From positions 1,707 to 65,706 of the IMG/VR virus record IMGVR_UViG_3300025924_000024: 64,000 nucleotides of DNA. One strand, given 5' to 3'. This document shows positions 2 through 56,131 of this stretch, piece by piece; the stretch's first letter is position 1, and each line of letters starts with the position of its first letter. Under the pieces are notes generated by a model. It was not told where the DNA came from and ran no database searches. It worked only from the letters and a program-made list of their open reading frames with translations. The DNA comes from a virus. Taxonomy: Duplodnaviria > Caudoviricetes. A program made the translations under genes and the position numbers.

Positions 2-316
2 CACCGGCTTGCAAAAAAGGGCGTCGAGATCCGCACGCGCGCGCCGGCGACGCCGCGTGTCAGGGCGCCAAGGCCACCGCGGCTGCCAAAGATCAAGCCG
101 GAGCCCCGGCAGATTGAGGCGCCGCTGGACCCGGAGTTCGCGGTCAGAGTGATCGAGGCCCGCGACGGTCACTGCTGCTGGCCATTCGGCGACCCTCAGC
201 TCGACGAATTCCGATATTGCGGACGGCCAAGATTCGAGGGACACCCCTACTGCGAAGGTCACTGCCGGGACGCCTATCAACCGCGTCAACCGCGCCGGGC
301 CAAGGAGGACGCATGA
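2..316 (+). CDS. gcrA: GcrA-family cell-cycle regulator, C-terminal part (5'-truncated by window)
   Basis: Manual translation of frame 2: Pro/Arg-rich linker, then HCCWPFGDPQLDEFRYCGRPRFEGHPYCEGHCRDAYQP, matching the GcrA C-terminal CxWPxGDP...CG...PYC..H...AYQ pattern. The stop overlaps the next ATG (ATGA, 313-316). Not in the ORF track. Confidence 0.8.
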   Translation, partial: HRLAKKGVEIRTRAPATPRVRAPRPPRLPKIKPEPRQIEAPLDPEFAVRVIEARDGHCCWPFGDPQLDEFRYCGRPRFEGHPYCEGHCRDAYQPRQPRRAKEDA

Positions 317-30378: not shown

Positions 30379-31629
30379 TGACGTGCTCCTTGACCGCCGC
30401 CTCGAGCGTCTCGAAAAAATATTCGGATGACATGGTGCCGAGCCGACCCGAGAAACGGCTTTTGACCATCCAATAAGTGTCGTGCTCACGGTCAGCGACG
30501 GCGATCAGGTGAGCGTCGGTCACCTCGGCGCTCGAGCACGGCAACGATTCGGACGTAACGTCACGCGAGCGCCGCGGCGAGCCTTTCAGTTCGGTGCTAT
30601 CGAAAATCAGGATTCTCATTTGCGCCCTCGATTCTTCGGCCGCGCATTCTTGGTTCGCTTGCCGACCCACCGGTCAAGTTCGGTGGCGGACGCGACCAGC
30701 GCAGTCAGCGCGAGAGACGCGAACTTCGCCGTCTCAGCCAGCCGGTATGCCGACTCGGCCATCACCATCTGGGTGGTCATCAGGTGAGCGCGCGCAAACG
30801 CGACCGTGCCCGGCTTGACGGCCATGCGCGCCATGCGCGTGACGATCATGTCGTCCAGCTGGCGCTGCATGCGTTGCTCTTCCGTCTCAGGCGGTTTCTT
30901 TTTCGTCATCGTCAGTCGGTCTCCCTTTCGATTAGCAGTGACGTGTCCAAGTCGGCGGCAGCGAAGGCCACGACCGACTCCGGCGTGAAAAGCAACAGCG
31001 CTCGAGCAACGCTCGCCCGCTTAAAGTCTTTTGAGCGCGCCCAATGCTTGAGGCGACGCTCGACGGCCTCCCCTGACAGTTTCGGTCTGCGCTTTGCCAT
31101 CACTCGCGCCCCACGATCAGACCAACAGGGCCGAGGCAAAACGTGACGTCCTCAGAGTCCCAGCAGACGCCTATCGTCCAATTGCGCGGATTCCAGCAGA
31201 GCCACGTCCGTTTCGTCAGCTGCATGGTCACTCCTCCAGAATCGGCGTCTTGAGATGGTCGACCGGACGCCACGCGGCCTGATATTCCTCCGGCGCGTTG
31301 GCGCGTTGCCACGCCCGCAGCCGGGTCATGTATTCGAACTCGGTCTGCGTGATCGGGTACTGACAGAGCCGCGTCCATTCGGCCACCGGGTCTTTCGGCA
31401 CGCCGTCAATCTCACAGAGCAACACCTCGGGCGACGTCAACTCACCCGCGTCGTCGACCTCCTGCCTCAACCAGATCCGCGCCGGCACGAACGGCGCCTT
31501 GCGCGCGAGCCGCGCCTTGAAAAACCCGCACAGCGGTTCGTCCTCGTGGATCTGGACGTGCCACGCGCGGCCGGCGCACGCCTGCGCGTGCCAGGCGAAA
31601 GCGAGCGCGAGGTCAGACGGCTTTCGCAC
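30365..31629 (-). other. Small hypothetical ORFs (30365-~30620, 30616-30909, 30912-~31103, 31228-31629)
   Basis: Chained same-strand ORFs. Confidence 0.45.
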
Positions 31630-33259
31630 GGTCGACCTCCACGGGCTGAGGCCGACGCGCGCGCTCGAGTTCGGCCTTGATGCGCCGGCCGACCCACGCG
31701 ATCACCGGCACCGCCATGCTGTTTCCGAGTTCGCGGTACCGGAGGCTGTTGCTTGCCGGTTTCCCGCGCACAGGCACGAGCGTGTAATCGTCATCAAAGC
31801 CGAACAGCCGCTCCCACTCGCGCGGCGTCAGGCGGCGGACGACGGCGCCGGCGGCGCGCACCGGGTCCTGATCGCCTTTATCAGCGTCGGCGCTGAGACC
31901 GAACGCAACGTCCTGCGGCTTGCCGTCTTTGCCGCGCGTGAAATGGCTGGGCTTGAACATCACCGCCAGCTGACTGCCGCCGTTCGTGTTCGCCTGGTCG
32001 GCGTTCATCGCCCGCGCGGTCGGCGCGAGATCTTCGCAGGCATCGCCCGCGTCAGATTTGCAATTGAACACGAGCGGCCGGCTGTCCGTTCTCAGCGCCG
32101 GCGAGACGTCCGGGCTGGGCTGGGTCCGGTCGTTGGGTGCCGTGAGGTCTTTGCCGTTGACGACCGTCACACCTTCGAACAGCAGCGGGAGGCTCGAGCC
32201 GCTGAGCGTCGGCCCGGCGCCGTCGGCCGACGATGGACGGCTGCGGTTGTCGGGTGAGGTCAGCTGCACGGCGTCAGCGATCACGACGTGGCTGCTTGGG
32301 TCTTTCGCGCCCATGAGCGTGTCGACCTTGTCGCCAGTCGAATAACCGCCCTCGCTCGAGGTCACCCGAAAAGCCTCAACGAGCAGGTGCCCGTCTTTCG
32401 TGTTGCTGTCGACGCCCTTGGCATCGCGCTCCTGCAGCGCCCACGCGGCCTCAGGCGGCTCAACGATGAACGCGCCCTGCTGATCTAGGTCCGTCGTTCT
32501 GAAACCGCCCTGAGCGTTGCTTCCAAGTGTGCCGGCAACGTCTTCCCCCGCTTGACGGCGCGACGGAGGATTCCGCGACACGCCAGCCGGCTCAAATAAA
32601 ACTCGGGCGGGATCTGGCCCGTCTCTAAAACTGACGACAAGGAACACACGCTCGCGTCGTTGGGCCAGGCCGAAGTATTGAGCGTCCAAAACACGCCACG
32701 CGGCCCGCGCCAATGGTCCGGCAACCATACCCGCGTCGGGCCACCGTCCGCGTTGGAGTGGCGAAACGAGGGCGGCATCTGAGCCGACAAAGCCTGCAAG
32801 GAGACATCCGAAGGCGTTGTCGTCGGTGCTGAGGACGCCCGGGACGTTTTCCCAGCAGATAGTGAGTCCGCGTTTCCCGGCTCGAAGCCGTCGAGCGTCA
32901 ATTGCACGTGCAAGCCTCACAAATGAAAGGGCCAGGTTACCGCGGTCGTCGCTCAGGCTTAGACGTTTGCCAGCGACGCTGAAAGACTGACAGGGCGTGC
33001 CGCCGATCAAGAGCTCAGGCAGCGCGATACCGAGGCGCTCCATGTGCCGCACGCGCAGCGCCGAGAAGTCACCCCAAAGCGGCACCCATGATCTTGGCGC
33101 CGCGCCGGCGCGCGAGTCGAAGGCTCGCCACCGGTACTTCAGCAGCGCAACCGGGCCCGCGTCGATCTCGCTGAGCATGACCGGCTCGAAGCCGAGCGGC
33201 GTCAGCGCGCAAGACGCGGCCTCGATTCCCGAGCAGACGCTCATGAAGGGAATGGTCAT
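31613..33259 (-). CDS. DNA (cytosine-5) methyltransferase with a long variable region
   Basis: SVCSGIEA (I), GGTPCQSFS (IV), ENVPG (VI), QRRERVF (VIII), RRLTPRE.ERL.GF (IX), RY..LGNSMAVPV (X). Confidence 0.92.
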   Translation of the reverse strand: MTIPFMSVCSGIEAASCALTPLGFEPVMLSEIDAGPVALLKYRWRAFDSRAGAAPRSWVPLWGDFSALRVRHMERLGIALPELLIGGTPCQSFSVAGKRLSLSDDRGNLALSFVRLARAIDARRLRAGKRGLTICWENVPGVLSTDDNAFGCLLAGFVGSDAALVSPLQRGRWPDAGMVAGPLARAAWRVLDAQYFGLAQRRERVFLVVSFRDGPDPARVLFEPAGVSRNPPSRRQAGEDVAGTLGSNAQGGFRTTDLDQQGAFIVEPPEAAWALQERDAKGVDSNTKDGHLLVEAFRVTSSEGGYSTGDKVDTLMGAKDPSSHVVIADAVQLTSPDNRSRPSSADGAGPTLSGSSLPLLFEGVTVVNGKDLTAPNDRTQPSPDVSPALRTDSRPLVFNCKSDAGDACEDLAPTARAMNADQANTNGGSQLAVMFKPSHFTRGKDGKPQDVAFGLSADADKGDQDPVRAAGAVVRRLTPREWERLFGFDDDYTLVPVRGKPASNSLRYRELGNSMAVPVIAWVGRRIKAELERARRPQPVEVDRAKAV

Positions 33260-35455: not shown

Positions 35456-37201
35456 TCAGAGCCGATAGTGCTTGTCGACGAAGCCGAGTTCGGGGTCGCC
35501 GACGAGGCACCACCGAACCCAAGATTTGTGGTTTTCGTAATGACGCCAGTGGCCACGCCGGAAATGAAGCCGCGGACTCGCGTGCGTCCCGCGCTCGCCT
35601 TCGAAGTCCGGCAGCCGCTCAGGCCGCGTGCGCCGGGCCAGGTTGACGACGTGATAGTCGAGAATCGGAAGCTTGCCCTTGCGCTCGCGCGCCTTGTTGA
35701 GCTTCGCCGGCGCGCGGACGCACTCGGTGACAGCAACCTCGGCCTCGAGCGCGATGGCCATTGCGCGGATCTGTGAGATGCACAGCGCGAACACGGCGTC
35801 CGCGTCCTCATGACCCTTGCTCGCTGTCCACTTCCCGTGCGCGAACGTGTAGACACCCGTCAAACACCAGCCGGACGGCGCTTCGACACACATGAGCGCG
35901 GTCGATGGGCTATGGTCTTGGTGGGTTGCCACGCTGGCGATCACGCGGCTGCCTGAAATCCGAAACTCGAAAATGGTCTCGTCGTAGCTGAGCCTCCACT
36001 CGCCCGCGTCGAATTCCTGAGCCTTATCGAAGGCCGCTGCCCAATTGTGCTGGACAACAAACGTCGGAGACGCGGCGTCGAGGACGCTCTTGAACTCCGC
36101 CGGGAAGATCTCGTCCTTGTGGATCATGAGCACGTCGCGCTGACGGAACGCCTCCAGCAGCTTGTGAAAGCCGGTCTCGCCCAGCTTGTTGAGCTGAGGG
36201 GATTTGTTGAGGGCGTGAACGTGGTTGGCCGCGAGCGCGCAACGCTTGAGCCATTCGATCTCGGAGCGCGTGCCAGCGAGGCGCGACTCAATCTCGCCGA
36301 TTTGCAGGTCGAGAATCTTGACAGCGATGCGCGAGCCGGCGGCGATATCAGGGTGATCCCTGAGCGCCGAGACGGTGTCCCTGACGTCGCCCGGCTTCAT
36401 TGCGCTCGCGGCCTCGTCGATCAGGCGTTGGAAATCCTCACGCTCACACCGCGCGGTGCCATCCGCGACGTCGTGGAGCATTGCGCGCGATAAGCCGAGT
36501 TTGAGTTCCGCGCGCCGGTATGGGTCAGGACTGGCCGCGAACTTCTTTTGCAGCTGGCTCAGCACGGCAAAGCGCTTCGCGCCTGACAGGCCCGAGAGAT
36601 GTTCGGCCACCACACCAGCGATAGGTCTCACGCGCTCGTCACCCGGCGGGTACTCAGCCGCGCGTAGCGTGTTTGGCATGTCTCTGACCGCCTGATCGAT
36701 GGAGGCGGCGATAGCGCGGTCGGGCCCGGGCGGATAGAATTTGTGCGGCGGTGTTGAGCCGTCAGTGCCCTTGTATTTCCCCATCACCCGGTCGACGACA
36801 TCATTGTCGGTCTCGCCCGGGCGCCGCGCCTTATCGAGTTTCCGCGCAGTGTTTTTGCCTATCTTGATTTTGACCTTACCGTCGGGACCGGGCTTGCTAT
36901 CCCAAGACGTGTCCAGCGGTGGCGGCTGCCACTCTGACGTCGGGCCGCTTGGCGTGCCAAACACGCCGCCGTGCCAGCGCGGCTTGTTCTGATCGAGATC
37001 AAATCCCGGCGGCTCTTTGATAGGCCGGCCAGTGACGTGCGCGCCCTCGACGCGGCCGAACACCTGAGCGGCAACCGGGCCACCGAGCGACGATTGAATC
37101 GGGTCACGGCGCGCACGCCGTGTTGCGTCTCCCGCGCGCTCAGGGTCGTTTGTTTTGGGAGGCTCGGAGGCCATCATTCGTCCTCCGACGGCGGCGCGCA
37201 T
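35456..37201 (-). CDS. Multidomain hypothetical protein (RHH-like and HTH-like segments, C-terminal SPRLHFRRGHWR motif)
   Basis: 581-aa ORF, start uncertain; motifs read by eye. Confidence 0.55.
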   Translation of the reverse strand: MRAAVGGRMMASEPPKTNDPERAGDATRRARRDPIQSSLGGPVAAQVFGRVEGAHVTGRPIKEPPGFDLDQNKPRWHGGVFGTPSGPTSEWQPPPLDTSWDSKPGPDGKVKIKIGKNTARKLDKARRPGETDNDVVDRVMGKYKGTDGSTPPHKFYPPGPDRAIAASIDQAVRDMPNTLRAAEYPPGDERVRPIAGVVAEHLSGLSGAKRFAVLSQLQKKFAASPDPYRRAELKLGLSRAMLHDVADGTARCEREDFQRLIDEAASAMKPGDVRDTVSALRDHPDIAAGSRIAVKILDLQIGEIESRLAGTRSEIEWLKRCALAANHVHALNKSPQLNKLGETGFHKLLEAFRQRDVLMIHKDEIFPAEFKSVLDAASPTFVVQHNWAAAFDKAQEFDAGEWRLSYDETIFEFRISGSRVIASVATHQDHSPSTALMCVEAPSGWCLTGVYTFAHGKWTASKGHEDADAVFALCISQIRAMAIALEAEVAVTECVRAPAKLNKARERKGKLPILDYHVVNLARRTRPERLPDFEGERGTHASPRLHFRRGHWRHYENHKSWVRWCLVGDPELGFVDKHYRL

Positions 37202-37358: not shown

Positions 37359-37679
37359 TCATTTCAGGCGCTCGGCAATTTCGCCGCGCACGGCCTCGAC
37401 ATCGACTTCCCACGCCGCCTGCTCAGGGTTGTCGGCCTCGCCGCCCATCACGCCTTCGGCGGTCTCGAGCACAATGTCGCAACGCTTGAGGAGGACGTCG
37501 TCATGGCGGCCATTCCACCTGTTCGCCGCCTCTTGAACTCCGGCAAGGCCAGAGATGCTTGACGGCAGCGGACCATCGGCGCCGCAGGTATCGCACCTGA
37601 CCACGCCAACGATTCGCAAATCGGTGCCGCCGCAAAACGGGCACGGCCTCAGTGTCGGCTCGGTGATCTCGTCCGTCAT
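37359..37679 (-). CDS. lar: Lar-family restriction alleviation protein
   Basis: LRPCPFCGG...VRCDTCGADGP...EAANRWNGR. Confidence 0.75.
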   Translation of the reverse strand: MTDEITEPTLRPCPFCGGTDLRIVGVVRCDTCGADGPLPSSISGLAGVQEAANRWNGRHDDVLLKRCDIVLETAEGVMGGEADNPEQAAWEVDVEAVRGEIAERLK

Positions 37680-37966
37680 GGCGCAACCTTTCCGCACGTC
37701 TTGCGGTGCGCGTTGAGGAATTCGAACAGCGCAGGCCGGTTGACCTGACACCATTGCCGCCCGGGCCGCTTGCCCTCGGCCATGAGCCCCATCGGCATCT
37801 TGCCGCCGCACTGGACGACGTCGTTGAGCGCGGGCGTTTGGACCCTGACGAGATCTCCGCGCGTCTGACGGTTGAACTCGCCCCAAAGGTGGTGCCAGTG
37901 ATCGTCTGTGCAGGGTTTCTTTTCCGGCCCGTTATAAGGCTCGACCTTTCCGTGGATGATCGTCAT
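37676..37966 (-). CDS. Hypothetical protein
   Basis: ATGA-coupled to the pilin-like gene. Confidence 0.5.
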   Translation of the reverse strand: MTIIHGKVEPYNGPEKKPCTDDHWHHLWGEFNRQTRGDLVRVQTPALNDVVQCGGKMPMGLMAEGKRPGRQWCQVNRPALFEFLNAHRKTCGKVAP

Positions 37967-38121
37967 TTGCCGCACTCGTTGTGGTCAGCGGTCGGCGCGT
38001 GAGGGTTGAGCGTGTGGGCGATGGTCGAAAACGTGTGCTTGATCTCGCAGCCCGTATCCTTGACCGAGCCGAGGATGACGAGCGCGATCAGCGCGACGAT
38101 GATTCCGTATTCAATGTGCAT
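37963..38121 (-). CDS. Leaderless Flp/Fap (type IVb Tad) pilin-like peptide, 52 aa
   Basis: MHIEYGIIVALIALVILGSVKDTGCEIKHTFSTIAHTLNPHAPTADHNECGK; GGAGG 6 nt upstream; overlaps both neighbours. Confidence 0.7.
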   Translation of the reverse strand: MHIEYGIIVALIALVILGSVKDTGCEIKHTFSTIAHTLNPHAPTADHNECGK

Positions 38122-38590
38122 GAGCGGCCTCCTGAGCCTTTGCGTAGACCATCATCCCGACCGGGCCCGTGACGTGATTGTCGACGATGGCCTGCGTGAC
38201 GATTTTTCTTTGACCGACGTCCCACCAGAGGTCGTCGACCTTGACATAGCGCCCGTCGGTGGTTGCGAGACTGATCGCGCCGCGCCCGAGCGCGGGCATT
38301 GCCGCCTCCCACGCCTCGTTCCACCGCGTGGTTGCGGCGCAGGCTTCGTCTGACGGAGCCGCGCTCACGTCATCCTGATCTATGTCGGGCAACGGGTCAG
38401 CGCCGAACTTTCGGAACGCGCGGTCCATCGCCATGTTCGCGTCACAGTAATCGTGGCTATGACAAACGAGGTCGTCCTGCTCAACGGCGTTGAGCATGCG
38501 CATGGTAAGGAATTCGACCGGGTCGAGCCAAAGCTTGAGGACCGAGACGAACTCGGCGGCGAGATCTTCTGCGCTCGGGAGCGAGGCCAT
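38111..38590 (-). CDS. Hypothetical protein (CHSHDYCDANM motif)
   Basis: Early-operon gene. Confidence 0.55.
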   Translation of the reverse strand: MASLPSAEDLAAEFVSVLKLWLDPVEFLTMRMLNAVEQDDLVCHSHDYCDANMAMDRAFRKFGADPLPDIDQDDVSAAPSDEACAATTRWNEAWEAAMPALGRGAISLATTDGRYVKVDDLWWDVGQRKIVTQAIVDNHVTGPVGMMVYAKAQEAAHAH

Positions 38591-38593
38591 GGC

Positions 38594-39133
38594 TCAGGAC
38601 TCCGCCTTCTCGTTATCGTCGTAGGTTTTTTCGCAGTCCGCATATGCCTGAAGCAGCGCGCGCACGTCGTCCCGTTCGTCACCGGAGAAATACTGACCGG
38701 CAACACCGCCGTCGGTCACGCCGATGCGGTCCTGCACGATCAGGGCGAGCGCGTTGACCGCGTCCTCGACGACCGCGTCGGTGATGGTGAAGCGGTCATC
38801 GGCGAGCGGCGCGCGGCTGCAATAGTCCTCGCTGGCCGCGAACTCGAAAAGCTGACGCTCAAACCGGCTGAGGTCGAAACCGATTTCGGTCTGGGCACCG
38901 ATCAGCATGTGAAAGCTTCCTTGCGCCCTGATATCGTCGGGCCACGCCTCGTCGAGGATTTCGATATAGAGCGGCCCCGGCACGCCCGGTTTGCCGAGAT
39001 AGGTGAAACCGGTGCGGCTCACCTCCTTAGCGTCGATGCCGAGCGCCTTGGGCAGGTCAGAGCAAAAGCGGCGAGTCTTCTGGAAGTCGGCGAAGGTGAG
39101 GTTTGCGAATTCGAAGACGGTTGAGGTCGTCAT
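38594..39133 (-). CDS. Hypothetical protein
   Basis: AAGGAG RBS; acidic. Confidence 0.55.
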   Translation of the reverse strand: MTTSTVFEFANLTFADFQKTRRFCSDLPKALGIDAKEVSRTGFTYLGKPGVPGPLYIEILDEAWPDDIRAQGSFHMLIGAQTEIGFDLSRFERQLFEFAASEDYCSRAPLADDRFTITDAVVEDAVNALALIVQDRIGVTDGGVAGQYFSGDERDDVRALLQAYADCEKTYDDNEKAES

Positions 39134-39146
39134 CGGTGAAGTCTCC

Positions 39147-39443
39147 TTAAACGGTTGCGGCGGTTTTGGTCTTGGCGCTCACGAAGGCGAGCACCGCGTT
39201 CCAGTCATCGGAGTCGAAAAACGTCTCGTTGTGACCGTCGGTCTCGGGATTCGCTTGGACCGAGAAGCGCTTCGACTCGGGACACTCGCGCTCAGACGGC
39301 TCTGGATAGTCGATGAACACGATCAGCCTGCCGACTCCGAAACACGGGCAGGCGTCGTTGGCCCAAGACATGTCCGTCCAGCCCTCAGGAATTGGCGGCA
39401 GGCGGTGCGCGGGATAGTCGGGAAACTCGGTCTCTAACTTCAT
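39147..39443 (-). CDS. First gene of the leftward operon, hypothetical (DMSWANDACPCF motif)
   Basis: AAGGAG before ATG 39443; an alternative in-frame start exists ~170 nt upstream. Confidence 0.55.
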   Translation of the reverse strand: MKLETEFPDYPAHRLPPIPEGWTDMSWANDACPCFGVGRLIVFIDYPEPSERECPESKRFSVQANPETDGHNETFFDSDDWNAVLAFVSAKTKTAATV

Positions 39444-39619
39444 GGGCGTGCTCCTTGCTGTGGCTGCGCGGGCCTCTTCCAAAGACCGCAGCGGCGGCGT
39501 CACAAGGACGAGTCCGGCGGGGGTGATTACGGGCACGGCGCTGATCGGCATGCCCGTCCGGCAGCCCCGGGTGTCGGTCATCCTGACGTAAGGCTCGGAT
39601 TCGGGGGAAAACATTGCGG

Positions 39620-39718
39620 CACTCCGTTGAGGTTGTGCAATCCATAGCGTGCCCAATTGACAGGAGGCAACCGCCACGGTCAGGTTGGCTTAACGAAACC
39701 TCACCGGCTTCCATAAAG
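39620..39718. promoter_or_regulatory. Divergent promoter region
   Basis: Strand switch; TTGACA at 39657-39662 (+); TTGCCT...GCTATGG on the - strand. Confidence 0.5.
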
Positions 39719-40066
39719 ATGACGACGCTTCAGGAATGGCGGGAAAAACGCGGCATGACCCGCGTCGCCCTGGCCGAAAAGCTGGGCTCCGCCGACATCA
39801 CAGTGGGGCGCTGGGAAAAGGGACGGCTGCCTGAGACCCCGTTTTTGCACAGCATTATTGAGCTGACCGGGGCTGCGGTGACGCCTAACGACTGGTTTCG
39901 GGCTGAGATCACCTCGGCCAGGCAGCAACCCAAGGAGCCCAAACATGGCAGCAAGAGTGAAGGCCGGCGGCGTGCCGGCAAAGACGCCCAAAAAGAAAAA
40001 GACCGCGGCAAAACCAAAGGGCGGCGGGTCACGGAAGAATACGCTCAGCGCCGAGGAAGCCGCTGA
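39719..40066 (+). CDS. Cro-like XRE HTH protein
   Basis: LQEWREKRGMTRVALAEKLG....TVGRWEKGRLP......I.ELT.AAVTPNDW; first rightward gene. Confidence 0.75.
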   Translation: MTTLQEWREKRGMTRVALAEKLGSADITVGRWEKGRLPETPFLHSIIELTGAAVTPNDWFRAEITSARQQPKEPKHGSKSEGRRRAGKDAQKEKDRGKTKGRRVTEEYAQRRGSR

Positions 40067-40430
40067 GGCGTTCGAGGAACTGTTCAACCTCCACGCCGAA
40101 CTTTCGACCGTCAGCGGTGAGGTCAGGAAGCGCATCGCCGACGAGTACGCGACCGTCGCCAAGCGACTCGAGGTCCCCAAGAAAATCGTCAAGCATGAGT
40201 TCGCGCTCGAGCGGCACCGCCGCCAGATTGCGAAGATCGAGGCCGAGTTCGACGGCCGCGACCGCGACGCGCTCATGAAACTCGCTCAGATCTTCGGCGA
40301 GGATTCGCCGTTCGGTGAGTTCGCGCTGCGCGCTGCCAACCGCGCCAAGCGTGACGACTTCGGCGGTCAGGCTGAGACTGGCGATGGCGGCGAAAGCGAG
40401 ACCGCTGACGAGGAAGGCCCCGAGGGCTGA
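39945..40430 (+). CDS. Possible GapR/DUF2312-like DNA-binding protein with a Lys-rich N-tail
   Basis: Helical core FEELFNLHAEL...RIADEYATVAKRL.V.KK.VK and SPFG near the C-terminus; resemblance only. Confidence 0.4.
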   Translation: MAARVKAGGVPAKTPKKKKTAAKPKGGGSRKNTLSAEEAAEAFEELFNLHAELSTVSGEVRKRIADEYATVAKRLEVPKKIVKHEFALERHRRQIAKIEAEFDGRDRDALMKLAQIFGEDSPFGEFALRAANRAKRDDFGGQAETGDGGESETADEEGPEG

Positions 40431-48311: not shown

Positions 48312-49817
48312 ATGTCAGGAACGAAGAGCACCTACGACGAACTATTTGTCGACGCGGACGGCAAGCAATTCTGGCCGTTCGACGTTGAGACCGAGCAGGC
48401 CCTGATCGGCTGGGCGCTGCTCGAGCGCCGGGCGATCGCCGTCATGCAGACCGAAATGTCGGTCGACGACGTCTATGACCCCGTCCACGCCCTGATCTTC
48501 GAGCGCATCTTCGCGAAGTACGAGGCCGAGTCGCCGATCACGCCGCTCACCCTCAACGCTTCGCTGAAACACGTCTTTGCCAAGGCCGAATTCAACGGCC
48601 TGTCCTACCTGGTCGGTTGCGCTCAGGCTGCGCCGGCAGCGCCGACGATGGAAATGCTGTTCGAGCAGGTCAAAGACGCCGCGCGAACTGTTGCTGACCA
48701 CAAGATCCGCCGGCGCGCGTCCGAGGCCCTCGTCGACGGCGTTGAGGCCATGCGCTCCGGCGAATCCGTTACCGATGCTCTCGCTCACGTCGTCACGGTA
48801 TCCGACGAGGAAAACGAGCGGGTCGAAATGCGCCGCGGCGCCGTCTCCGTCAGCGAGGCCGCGAACACGCTGGTAACCGACCTCGAGCGCAACGAGGACA
48901 TCCGAATCCCGGCCGCGCCGACAGGTCTCATAACGCTCGATCAGATTGTCGGCGGCAATTTCCCGGGCGAGTTCGTCGTCGTTGGCGGTCGGCCAGGCAT
49001 GGGCAAATCGGTCGTCGGCGAAATGATGGCGCGTCATGCCGCCATGGATGACTTCGCGGTCGACTATTTCGACCTCGAGAACAAGACCGGCGTGCTGACC
49101 GCGCGCATGCTTTGCGATATCGATTACGACCGCGCGTTCGCCGAGGGCCTAAAGCCCATCCAGTTTTCGCGCATCCGCCTGCGCCGCATCAGCGCGGACG
49201 AGCGTCAGCGCCTCGCCGAGGCAACGCTCAAGCTTCGCGAACTGGATATTCAAATCCACGACCGCGAAGAAATGACCATCGACGCGATCACCGCTATCTG
49301 CCGCGCCAAACGCGCGCGCACAAAAAAACGCATGATGGTTGTCGTCGACCACATGCACCTCGTTGAGCCGAGCAAGCGCTACTTCGGCCGCAAGGTCGAC
49401 GAGATCTCCGAAATTACGAAAGGTCTAAAGCGGCTCGCCAAGCGTCTCGACGCGTCGGTCGTCGCCCTCGCTCAGCTCAGCCGCGGCGTTGAAGGCCGCG
49501 ATGACAAGCGGCCGACCATGTCTGACTTCCGGGAATCGGGGTCAATCGAGCAAGACGCCGATGCGATGTATGGCCTTCACCGGCCGCAATACTATCTCGA
49601 GCGCAATAAGCCCAAGGCTGACGCGAGCGAAGTCGACAGGGGCAAGCACGCGGCAATGCTGATCGCCTCGCACAACGTGCTCGACTTCGGCCTGCTCAAA
49701 AACCGGCATGGGCCAACGACCGACCTTCAGGTCTATTGCGACGTCGCGTGCTCAGCGGTCAGAGACGAAAAACCGAGCAATGGCCCGACGCTCGATTACA
49801 AGGGATTGTTCGCGTGA
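48312..49817 (+). CDS. dnaB: DnaB-family replicative helicase
   Basis: GGRPGMGKS (Walker A), VVVDHMHL, LAQLSRGVEGRDDKRPTMSDFRESGSIEQDAD, KNRHGPT. Confidence 0.93.
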   Translation: MSGTKSTYDELFVDADGKQFWPFDVETEQALIGWALLERRAIAVMQTEMSVDDVYDPVHALIFERIFAKYEAESPITPLTLNASLKHVFAKAEFNGLSYLVGCAQAAPAAPTMEMLFEQVKDAARTVADHKIRRRASEALVDGVEAMRSGESVTDALAHVVTVSDEENERVEMRRGAVSVSEAANTLVTDLERNEDIRIPAAPTGLITLDQIVGGNFPGEFVVVGGRPGMGKSVVGEMMARHAAMDDFAVDYFDLENKTGVLTARMLCDIDYDRAFAEGLKPIQFSRIRLRRISADERQRLAEATLKLRELDIQIHDREEMTIDAITAICRAKRARTKKRMMVVVDHMHLVEPSKRYFGRKVDEISEITKGLKRLAKRLDASVVALAQLSRGVEGRDDKRPTMSDFRESGSIEQDADAMYGLHRPQYYLERNKPKADASEVDRGKHAAMLIASHNVLDFGLLKNRHGPTTDLQVYCDVACSAVRDEKPSNGPTLDYKGLFA

Positions 49818-50707
49818 GCGCGCCAACGCGGCCGGCGCTTCGCTGGCATGGCGGCAAATGGCTGCTCGCGCCGTGGATCATCGGGTTTTTCCCGCCTCAC
49901 AGGATCTACGTCGAGCCGTTCGGCGGCGCGGCCTCGGTCCTCCTCCGCAAGCCGCGGTCCTATGGCGAGATTTACAACGACCTCGACTCCGAAGTGGTCA
50001 ACCTTTTCCGCGTGCTCAGATCTCCGGCTGACGCCGAGCGGCTCGTCTGGTCGCTGAGGATCACGCCGTTCGCGCGAGACGAATTCGCGCTCGCCTACGA
50101 GTGGGCGCTCGACCCGGCTGAGCAGGCACGCCGTCTAGTCGTCCGCTCGTTCATGGGTTTCGGCTCTGACGGTCATAACCGGCTTGTCACCACCGGCTTC
50201 CGGTCCAACGCGAATCGCGCCGGCACCACGCCAGCGCATGACTGGATGAACTACCCTGACGCGCTCGAAATGACGGTCGAGCGGTTGCGCGGCGTCGTGA
50301 TCGAGAACCGGCCGGCGATCAAGGTGATGGCGCACCACGACTCGCCCGAGACGCTCCACTACGTCGACCCGCCGTACTTACCCACAACGCGCTCACAAAA
50401 AAGTCGGAAGTCGGGAGAGCGGTATCACACCTACACCCACGAAATGTCCGCCGCCGATCATTATGAGCTCTTGCAATTTCTCAACGGCGCGAGCGGGATG
50501 GTCGTTCTCTCAGGCTATCCCGCGCCGCTTTACGAAGAGGCGCTGACCGGCTGGGAACGCCACGAACGCGAAGCGCTCGCTGACGGTGCCCGGCCACGAA
50601 CGGAGGTTGTGTGGCTCAATCCCGCATGCGTCGCCGCTCGCGCCCTGGCCGCAAAGCCGCAAGCGGCCGTGATCGCTCACCCTGACCTGTTCACCTTTGG
50701 AGGCTGA
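49814..50707 (+). CDS. Dam-like (D12 class) DNA adenine methyltransferase
   Basis: LRWHGGKW, YVEPFGGAASVL, YNDLD, HYVDPPY. GTG start at 49814. Confidence 0.9.
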   Translation: MSAPTRPALRWHGGKWLLAPWIIGFFPPHRIYVEPFGGAASVLLRKPRSYGEIYNDLDSEVVNLFRVLRSPADAERLVWSLRITPFARDEFALAYEWALDPAEQARRLVVRSFMGFGSDGHNRLVTTGFRSNANRAGTTPAHDWMNYPDALEMTVERLRGVVIENRPAIKVMAHHDSPETLHYVDPPYLPTTRSQKSRKSGERYHTYTHEMSAADHYELLQFLNGASGMVVLSGYPAPLYEEALTGWERHEREALADGARPRTEVVWLNPACVAARALAAKPQAAVIAHPDLFTFGG

Positions 50708-54330: not shown

Positions 54331-54554
54331 CGGACCTCAGCCGCCGCCAGATCTTCGCTGTCACGGCCGGCGCTGCAGCGGCGACGTTGCCGTTGCCGGC
54401 CGCGCCCGTGGTGAGGACGGTCATCGACAACCAGACCGGTCGCGTCATCAGCCGTGCGCGCCCGCTTGACTCGTGGAACGCGGCGGCGCTGGGTTTCATG
54501 ACGCGCGCTGAGATCCGCGCGCTCGAGGACCTCCCGCCCCTGCAGGAAACATGA
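54327..54554 (+). CDS. Small protein with Tat-like signal
   Basis: MTDLSRRQIFAVTAGAAAATLPLPAAP; ATGA overlap. Confidence 0.6.
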   Translation: MTDLSRRQIFAVTAGAAAATLPLPAAPVVRTVIDNQTGRVISRARPLDSWNAAALGFMTRAEIRALEDLPPLQET

Positions 54555-56131
54555 CCGAGACCGACACCGAAAAGTCGTCCACCGCGAAACCCGCCGCAAA
54601 GCTGGCGAAAGCCGGCAAAGCGGACGAGAAAAAGAAAACGCCCAAAAATCGTCCAGCTGCGCCGGCGCATCATGGAGCGCCGGCCGCTCAGGCTTTCATC
54701 GAGGTTCGCCCGGGCCGCGGTGGACCGAAGCGCGTGGCGCCCTGGCCGGCGTGCACGGTCGAAATGGTGCCGATCAAGGAATTGATCCCTTACGCGAAGA
54801 ACGCCCGCACGCACTCGCCGTCTCAGGTCCAGTCGATCGCGCGCTCGCTTGAGAAGTTCGGCTGGACCAACTCGGTGCTGCGTGACGAGAAGAACGTCAT
54901 CATCGCCGGCCACGGCCGCTTGCTCGGCGCTGACGTGCTCGTCCAGCGCGGGCTCAAGCGCTTCGAGGAGGCGCCGGTCATCACCGCCACCGGCTGGACC
55001 GAGCCTCAGAAGCGCGCGTACGCAATCGCCGACAACCAGATCGCGCTGGCGGCTGGCTGGGACGCAAAGCTGCTCGAGTCCGAACTGAAAGAGATCTCGG
55101 GCATGGGTTTCCAAATGGACCTGCTCGGCTTCTCAGCTCACGAACTGCGGCGCTACCTCGGGACGAGCGGTGCCGGCGCTGGTGACCCTGACAACGTGCC
55201 CGAGGCGCTCACGCACACGGTCAGCCGCCGCGGTGATCTCTGGATGCTCGGGCCGCACCGGGTCCTGTGTGGCGACGCGACTTCGCGCACCGACGTCAGC
55301 CGGCTGCTGGGCAACGGCAAGAGCCCGGTGCTGATGGCGACCGACCCGCCTTACGGCGTCGACTATAAGCCGGAATGGCGCAAAGACGTCGGAGGCGCAT
55401 TCGCTCGCGATAAAACATCGACGGGGACGGTCATGAACGATGATCGGATTGACTGGCGCGAGGCGTTCATACTTTTCCCCGGCAGTGTTGCCTATATTTG
55501 GCATGCGCCAACGTTCCAGCCCGAGGTCAAGGCTTCCTTGTCAGCCGCTGGTTTCGAAGTGCGCTCCCAGATCATCTGGCGCAAGCCACATTTCACGATG
55601 GGCCGCGGCGACTATCATTGGCAGCATGAGGCTGCCGAATACGCCGTCAGGAAGGGCTCGCGCTCGAACTGGAAAGGCGGACGCAAGCAATCGACCATCT
55701 GGGATATCGCCGGACTCAACCCGGCCGGGCGTGGCGCTCAGACCGAGGAAAACAAGGCAACCGGTCACGGCACGCAAAAGCCGGTCGAGTGCATGCTGCG
55801 CCCGATTGAGAACAACACCAGCGAGGACGACGTCGTCTACGACCCGTTCTTGGGCTCAGGCACGACGCTGATCGCGGCCGAGCAGTCGAAGCGGATCTGC
55901 TTTGCCGTTGAGCTGAAACCCGCCTACGTCGACCTCGCGGTCAGGCGCTGGCAAGCGTTCACAGGAGGCGTCGCGTTGCTGTCGGGGCGCAACCTGAGTT
56001 TTGAGGAGATCGACGGCGAGAGGAAACATGGGCAACCGAGGACCAAAACCAAAACCGACAAAGCTGAAACTGCTCCTCGGAAACGCCGGGCACCGGCCGC
56101 TAAATCAGAGCGAGCCGGAGCCTCCGTCTGA
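54551..56131 (+). CDS. ParB-like N-domain fused to an N4/N6 DNA methyltransferase
   Basis: LIPYAKNARTH...IIAGHGRL; TDPPYG, HGTQKPVE, YDPFLGSGTTLIAA. Confidence 0.9.
   Translation: MTETDTEKSSTAKPAAKLAKAGKADEKKKTPKNRPAAPAHHGAPAAQAFIEVRPGRGGPKRVAPWPACTVEMVPIKELIPYAKNARTHSPSQVQSIARSLEKFGWTNSVLRDEKNVIIAGHGRLLGADVLVQRGLKRFEEAPVITATGWTEPQKRAYAIADNQIALAAGWDAKLLESELKEISGMGFQMDLLGFSAHELRRYLGTSGAGAGDPDNVPEALTHTVSRRGDLWMLGPHRVLCGDATSRTDVSRLLGNGKSPVLMATDPPYGVDYKPEWRKDVGGAFARDKTSTGTVMNDDRIDWREAFILFPGSVAYIWHAPTFQPEVKASLSAAGFEVRSQIIWRKPHFTMGRGDYHWQHEAAEYAVRKGSRSNWKGGRKQSTIWDIAGLNPAGRGAQTEENKATGHGTQKPVECMLRPIENNTSEDDVVYDPFLGSGTTLIAAEQSKRICFAVELKPAYVDLAVRRWQAFTGGVALLSGRNLSFEEIDGERKHGQPRTKTKTDKAETAPRKRRAPAAKSERAGASV

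Follow-up and report, generated by a model that had tools for sequence, protein, structure and literature searches.

A tailed phage known from metagenomes carries, in a leftward operon, a 52-codon gene for a homologue of Flp/Fap (Tad) pilins that begins directly at the mature pilin and has no prepilin leader. Its most likely role is that of a ready-made pilin mimic, which would interfere with the host pilus or with the sensing of pilin. The viral record is 65.7 kb long and complete by CheckV's rating; the stretch analysed here (the window) takes in 64 kb of it. Three relatives of the gene, also leaderless, occupy the same place in other phage-like contigs. The leaderless Flp-like gene is conserved in a small clade of tailed phages that are uncultured and probably infect Alphaproteobacteria.

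In the translation of the window, the frame starts MHIEYG, runs through its 52 codons uninterrupted by stops and lies on the minus, not the plus, strand (Table 1). An earlier, sequence-only reading of this DNA had described a 52-aa gene with a strong ribosome-binding site and overlaps on both sides, a description that held throughout: AGGAGG stands 6 nt 5' of the ATG, the ATG lies 11 nt within the end of the upstream 159-aa gene, and the TGA stop shares ATGA at 37966 with the ATG of the 96-aa gene (4-nt overlap). That reading had also reported the gene as missed by the ORF track, which is correct for the track it used but not for public gene callers: in three independent assemblies they predict the gene, for which an Flp_Fap match is stored. 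The sequence of the gene is identical in four independent assemblies. Its third-position GC content (GC3) is 0.83, compared with 0.75–0.79 in its neighbours, and this value, conservation in three other phage contigs and a dN/dS of 0.17 for the closest pair establish that the frame is a real gene and not a chance one. An in-frame stop lies 11 codons 5' of the ATG, and the codons between the two include no ATG, GTG or TTG start and no Gly; the 52-aa product is therefore truly leaderless in its own frame, as the earlier claim of a missing prepilin leader and cleavage Gly had it. A hidden leader or a frameshift fusion to the upstream gene was considered and rejected, given the upstream stop and the lack of Gly at −1, and also because the in-frame upstream residues vary among the phages while the ATG and the ribosome-binding site are kept.

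Table 1. Features of the window around the Flp-like gene and in the wider phage genome (positions count from the first letter of the window)
Feature	Position	Strand	Basis or remark
Leaderless Flp/Fap pilin homologue (P0002)	37963..38121	-	52 aa; ORF and Pfam Flp_Fap match above cut-off
AGGAGG ribosome-binding site	38128..38133	-	6 nt before the Flp-like ATG, within the 3' end of the 159-aa gene
155-aa gene, first in the leftward operon	39147..39614	-	Start set by homology and public call
179-aa gene, second in the leftward operon	38594..39133	-	ORF; conserved order
159-aa gene (phrog_21393)	38111..38590	-	Last 11 nt overlap the Flp-like start
96-aa gene	37676..37966	-	ATG overlaps the Flp-like stop (ATGA)
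Lar-like restriction-alleviation gene	37359..37679	-	Pfam Lar_restr_allev and phrog_599; limits from public call
572-aa gene, same operon, conserved in related phages	35456..37174	-	Synteny and public call
Divergent control region, 104 bp	39615..39718	.	Between the leftward Flp-like operon and the rightward HTH/replication operon
XRE/Cro-type HTH gene heading the rightward operon	39719..40066	+	Pfam HTH_3, E = 4e-7
GcrA-domain protein	2..316	+	
C5 methylase	31613..33259	-	
Dam-like D12 methylase	49736..50707	+	
ParB-fused N6/N4 methylase	54551..56131	+	

The sequence-only reading had noted a match to the mature Flp pattern and had put forward an Flp/Fap HMM search as a check. Against Pfam Flp_Fap (PF04964), the protein scored 37.4 bits (cut-off 32.2; E = 2e-9), and a search of the DNA of the whole record agreed (36.3 bits). 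The match spans residues 3–37 of the protein and positions 11–45 of the 46 in the profile, that is, the mature pilin only, upholding the proposed pattern. The three relatives scored 22.9–27.1 bits, below the cut-off (E = 4e-6 to 7e-5), with matches restricted to profile positions 10/12–46; no NCBIfam model gave a match. A profile of the family also matched the mature PilA chains of solved Tad pili (8u1k_A, E = 6e-6; 8u2b, E = 2e-5). In this match, family position 2 pairs with mature PilA residue 4, and the phage Met of the window copy therefore stands opposite mature pilin residue 2 and that of the relatives opposite residue 3, leaving an N-terminus 1–2 residues shorter than that of a processed pilin. 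When aligned with six alphaproteobacterial Flp prepilins taken from genomes, the phage protein lacks about 20 leader columns (of the type K-D-E-S-G-A-T-A), its body aligns without gaps, and G24, F31, A35 and L38 fall on Flp-conserved columns. Beyond the Flp body, a tail extends for 10–14 residues across the family and for 14 in the window copy. In the protein, a short N-terminus (MHIEY) leads into a hydrophobic helix (residues 6–20, mean Kyte–Doolittle value 2.9), an amphipathic helix comes second, and the C-terminal tail bears Cys25 and Cys50; AlphaFold placed helices at residues 3–19 and 21–38 with a pLDDT of 67, a low to moderate confidence. By its sequence, the protein is a true Flp/Fap homologue. 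We file it as an Flp-derived protein rather than as an Flp prepilin because it has no leader or cleavage site and no tad locus alongside.

The leader is a constant of ordinary Flp genes. A G-x4-EY leader was present in 56/56 of those inspected, which came from species genomes (10), metagenomes (13), a sample of 301 alphaproteobacterial genomes (10) and IMG/VR viral contigs (23). The 301 genomes yielded ordinary Flp genes only, at 29–53% identity, and the roughly 110 matches found in them all begin at query residue 3; the sample includes one genome flagged as unpublished (G249), whose locus L064 is one of the ten leader-bearing genes. The mature regions of the 10–11 Flp genes from the sampled alphaproteobacterial genomes contain no Cys. 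In a scan of IMG/VR for canonical Flp, each of the 23 genes returned had a normal leader. Orphan Flp prepilin genes of full length, whose leader is normal (MKKLFSK...DESGATA-IEYGLI), occur in about a dozen phage-like contigs of IMG/VR (L072, L074, L076–L082, L084 and L085; mostly 10–55 kb, one of 92 kb). The orphan gene of L077 has phage-metallopeptidase, Imm8 and NusG-like genes beside it, and no tad gene lies within 3 kb. Such orphan genes would be phage cargo pilins that still need a host peptidase.

Searched exhaustively with phmmer (E up to 1e-3), a set of 1.84 billion representative proteins returned only eight matches: the query, three long multi-stretch proteins, two longer Flp-containing proteins and two small ones, 51 and 48 aa in length, with alignments that begin at residues 2–3; a profile search added another 48-aa member. 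The family consists of four distinct sequences of 48–52 aa, the three relatives (48–51 aa) coming from other metagenomes, where their contigs have phage-like early regions with the Flp-like gene at the same place in a syntenic operon. The search of phage genomes for leaderless Flp genes, another check put forward in the sequence-only reading, was thus answered by three relatives in metagenomes and by none elsewhere: blastn and tblastn against 50,697 GenBank phage records gave no match to the gene or its protein, and IMG/VR scans with the protein, with the family alignment and with two strict back-translated patterns of M-x(1,2)-E-x-GIIVAL gave chance matches only, such as GroES-like frames.

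The four copies share their setting and a defined set of residues. In 4/4 copies, an (A)AGGAG motif stands 6–7 nt 5' of the ATG, the upstream gene runs 8–11 nt into the Flp-like gene, and the downstream gene is joined to it through an ATGA or GTGA overlap. Met1, Glu4, GIIVAL at 6–11, Ile16-Leu17-Gly18, Gly24-Cys25, Phe31, Ala35, Leu38, Pro40 and the C-terminal Lys are invariant, and a second Cys stands two or three residues from the C-terminus in all four. The invariant Glu nevertheless lies at +4 in the window copy and at +3 in the relatives, whereas ordinary mature Flp pilins have Glu at +5 and Tyr at +6; Tyr follows the Glu only in the window copy, its place being taken by Leu in two relatives and by Lys in the third. 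The dN/dS values of more distant pairs, at 0.3–1.0, are saturated or noisy, and constraint on the tail is weak by this measure. The small size of the family and its variable tail would suit a functionless, decaying remnant of a captured pilin gene. We give that idea almost no credence, as the frame, the ribosome-binding site and both overlaps are intact in four diverged phages, the closest pair shows the low dN/dS given above, GC3 matches that of the genome, and the same sequence recurs in four assemblies.

Four independent datasets each yielded the phage genome (about 65.6 kb), in assemblies that start and end at different points, which implies that the genome is complete and circular or circularly permuted. 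It is of siphovirus type, with genes for a large terminase, portal, protease and major capsid protein, and a 947-codon ORF is taken to be the tape measure on its size and position. No integrase was seen in the record. Its GcrA-domain protein, tail genes of the phiJL001-Gp84, BR0599 and Rcc01698 kinds (RcGTA/phiJL001-type) and GC content of 64% point to an alphaproteobacterial host. The record contains no tRNA genes, capsid relatives are spread across Alpha- and Gammaproteobacteria at no more than 48% identity, and no prophage relatives of the early genes were found. Besides the GcrA-domain protein, the phage encodes C5, Dam-like D12 and ParB-fused N6/N4 methylases (Table 1), a combination that suggests interplay with alphaproteobacterial cell-cycle methylation control. 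Searches of the complete 65.7-kb record for a prepilin peptidase (A24, PF01478), a T2SSE ATPase (PF00437) and a T2SSF platform protein (PF00482) gave no match, and the Flp-like protein must therefore act on host components.

The Flp-like gene is the fourth of its leftward operon, after the 155-, 179- and 159-aa genes and before the 96-aa gene, the Lar-like gene and, further on, the gene for a protein of about 570 aa; a C5 methylase gene belongs to the same operon. The order recurs in contig L028 with one extra gene inserted after the Flp-like gene. The 159-aa gene is 68% identical to the gene at the same place in L028. More distant relatives of it occur in 13 other viral contigs, in which no Flp-like frame was found by the Pfam model (five contigs searched) or the family HMM (all 13); an obligate pairing of the Flp-like gene with the 159-aa gene was rejected on this ground. 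No other small gene of the module is as well conserved as the 96-aa gene, which shares about 80% identity with its L028 and L053 homologues and is rich in Cys, His and Trp; it matched no Pfam family. The Lar-like gene scored 30.6–31.9 bits for Lar_restr_allev (cut-off 28.6). For the 572-aa gene, public tables store a weak AcrVA2-like (anti-CRISPR) Pfam match, which was not reproduced in our own Pfam run. The layout suggests that the operon is probably an early or host-takeover one, in keeping with the earlier description of the Flp-like gene as part of an early operon.

A divergent control region bounds the operon on its right. Three of the four phages share its promoter-like elements (TTTAC ... 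GCTATG) and its near-CtrA box. The putative box reads TTAA-N7-TGAC in the window and TTAA-N7-TAAC in L029 and L053. A conserved CAACCTCAACGGAG directly precedes the first ATG at this region. The rightward operon comprises the HTH gene, 161-aa and 198-aa genes, DUF7768, DnaB and a Dam-type methylase, and synteny places the genes to the right of 39.7 kb on the plus strand. The XRE/Cro-type HTH gene is absent from public calls and overlaps the 161-aa gene (39945–40430) by about 120 nt.

This neighbourhood invites the view that the Flp-like protein descends from a pilin but now serves as a membrane peptide with a role apart from pili, for example in anti-defence, in modulating the membrane or lysis timing, or as a partner of its coupled neighbours. 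The gene sits among genes of anti-defence type (the Lar-like gene, the methylases and the stored weak AcrVA2-like match) and is tightly coupled to two conserved neighbours, and the family has lost Tyr6 in three of four members and has a fast-evolving tail. Such an exaptation nevertheless seems unlikely to us, because the pilin-specific Glu, Gly6, Gly24, Phe31, Ala35 and Leu38 are retained beyond what hydrophobicity would ask for, and an obligate complex with the 159-aa protein is itself unlikely, as that family occurs in other phages without an Flp-like partner.

We propose instead, tentatively and with rather less than even confidence, that the protein is a peptidase-independent inner-membrane pilin mimic that jams or poisons assembly of the Tad pilus. 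The sequence-only reading had likewise suggested a decoy that would poison or cap pilus assembly and block superinfection, and had added that the phage may use the Tad pilus as its receptor. The product would be a small inner-membrane copy of the processed host Tad/Flp pilin, needing no prepilin peptidase and expressed from the leftward, probably early operon beside anti-restriction genes. It would insert in pilin orientation, with the N-terminus inside and the C-terminal tail reaching the periplasm, and there a disulfide could form between the two conserved cysteines. The conservation of the Cys pair speaks for a tail in the periplasm and hence for this orientation, but the topology is uncertain because the charges flanking the helix of the window protein give no clear positive-inside signal. 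Since it retains the packing face of the pilin (the Glu, a hydrophobic helix rich in Gly and, further on, the Gly, Phe and Ala/Leu positions), the mimic could be mistaken for pilin by the Tad machine, whether by its platform proteins or at the base of the growing fibre. Because its N-terminus is 1–2 residues short and starts with Met, the Tyr of the Glu–Tyr network is mostly lost and its extra tail may be locked by a disulfide, it would then block or end pilus assembly. Pili would be lost soon after infection, such that superinfection is stopped, pilus-dependent phages are excluded and progeny are not wasted on infected cells.

Work on Caulobacter bears on several of these steps. In its PilA, Glu19 (mature position +5) forms hydrogen bonds with the Ala17 backbone of one neighbour and with Tyr20 of another (PMC11067988), and Glu19 and Tyr20 are both crucial if the Tad pilus is to assemble, though not for expression of the pilin (PMC11067988). 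The phage protein could, in principle, still be a working pilin that the host Tad machine polymerises without processing, yielding altered or mixed pili that mask the receptor of other phages or change host adhesion; virus-encoded pilins that use host machinery are documented for the archaeal virus SNJ2 (PMC12426801), and the orphan full-length prepilin genes in about a dozen IMG/VR phage-like contigs fit with viral carriage of pilins. Three features nevertheless make this reading very unlikely: the assembly-critical Tyr6 is missing in three of four members, the N-terminal register is shifted by 1–2 residues, and the Cys-bearing tail is one not seen in Flp genes from the sampled alphaproteobacterial genomes. 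Given the loss of Tyr6 in 3/4 members, the shorter N-terminus and the new Cys pair, we favour a mimic that would not polymerise over a working pilin. A finding that counts against a mimic acting in the membrane is that leaderless PilA15-59 failed to complement the defective timing of the cell cycle in a pilA deletion (PMC7196804), a failure that its authors explained by failed translocation (PMC7196804).

Mimicry of a pilin signal to PleC is an alternative equally specific as pilus blocking. The first 17 residues of mature PilA, termed CIP, bind the first transmembrane segment of PleC (TM1) and trigger c-di-GMP synthesis and cell-cycle entry (PMC7196804). The phage protein could act as a counterfeit mature-pilin signal of this kind, raising c-di-GMP and driving the G1-to-S transition with pilus retraction as a side effect, and, together with the GcrA homologue and the methylases of the phage, it would reprogramme the cell cycle of the host. 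The CIP sequence alone suffices to signal through PleC TM1 (PMC7196804), and synthetic CIP cut susceptibility to phiCbK by 77% and attachment by 71% (PMC7196804). The window protein equals CIP at 12/16 aligned positions, a match that, with the GcrA-domain protein and the three DNA methylases, makes the idea attractive; the near-CtrA box conserved upstream of the operon would also suit it. The relatives, however, equal CIP at only 7–9/15 positions and depart from it within the first five residues, and the C-terminal Gly-Cys, Phe, Ala/Leu, Pro and terminal Cys are kept in the family, though a CIP-like signal needs none of them. The link between PilA and PleC was shown in Caulobacter only, and the failure of PilA15-59 to complement (PMC7196804) weighs on this reading too. 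On balance, we think it rather improbable. A broader form of the idea, which we regard as speculative and quite improbable, would have the protein deliver a counterfeit 'pili have retracted' signal through a PleC-type sensor, eliciting a c-di-GMP burst, the G1-to-S transition and a shutdown of piliation in concert with the GcrA homologue and methylases, and would make leaderless-pilin substrate mimicry a recurrent strategy against type IV filaments. The pilus-blocking and signal-mimic readings are mutually compatible.

In Alphaproteobacteria, Tad pili drive adhesion, the sensing of surfaces and entry into the cell cycle; many other bacteria use them for colonisation. If the pilus-blocking proposal is true, this would be the first such phage factor aimed at Tad (type IVc) pili, and the protein would be a compact, genetically encoded tool for shutting them down. 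Its 52 residues also offer a natural test of whether the prepilin leader is needed for membrane insertion or only for the control of assembly, and of which pilin features are read by the Tad platform and by the PleC sensor. A full-text literature search found no paper describing a leaderless phage pilin gene.

Compared with the type IVc (Tad) pilins of the Flp/Fap family, such as PilA of 8u1k, the phage protein is homologous across the mature pilin, sharing the Glu, the hydrophobic helix rich in Gly and Ile/Leu and, beyond it, the Gly, Phe and Ala/Leu positions, with the Tyr shared by the window copy only. It differs from them in having no leader or cleavage Gly, in starting with Met 1–2 residues short, in the loss of Tyr in 3/4 members, and in the two conserved Cys and the 10–14-residue tail extension of its family, and it is carried by a phage without other Tad genes. 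The PilA1/2 pilins of SNJ2 and the orphan IMG/VR Flp genes (L072–L085) are likewise virus-carried pilins without assembly machinery; they keep the leader and cleavage site, and those of SNJ2 have been shown to assemble, whereas the present family has no leader. CIP belongs to the host's own pilin, and the phage protein, like the synthetic peptide, would be present without processing.

Known phage anti-pilus proteins bind the motor or the platform. PfsE of Pseudomonas phage Pf4, a very small inner-membrane protein with a cytoplasmic N-terminus, binds the platform protein PilC, stops pilus extension and causes superinfection exclusion (PMC8764522), and Tip of D3112 and Aqs1 of DMS3 bind and block PilB (PMC8764522). 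PfsE offers a working analogy for the small inner-membrane pilus inhibitor proposed here. PfsE, Tip and Aqs1 are unrelated to the phage Flp-like protein in sequence and have no homology to pilins, and it is type IVa pili that they act on, through PilC or PilB. Unlike these motor and platform binders, a trimmed, leaderless pilin would represent a different principle, if the proposal is true: mimicry of the substrate or product, by which the protein would inhibit type IVc (Tad) pili as a copy of their own subunit.
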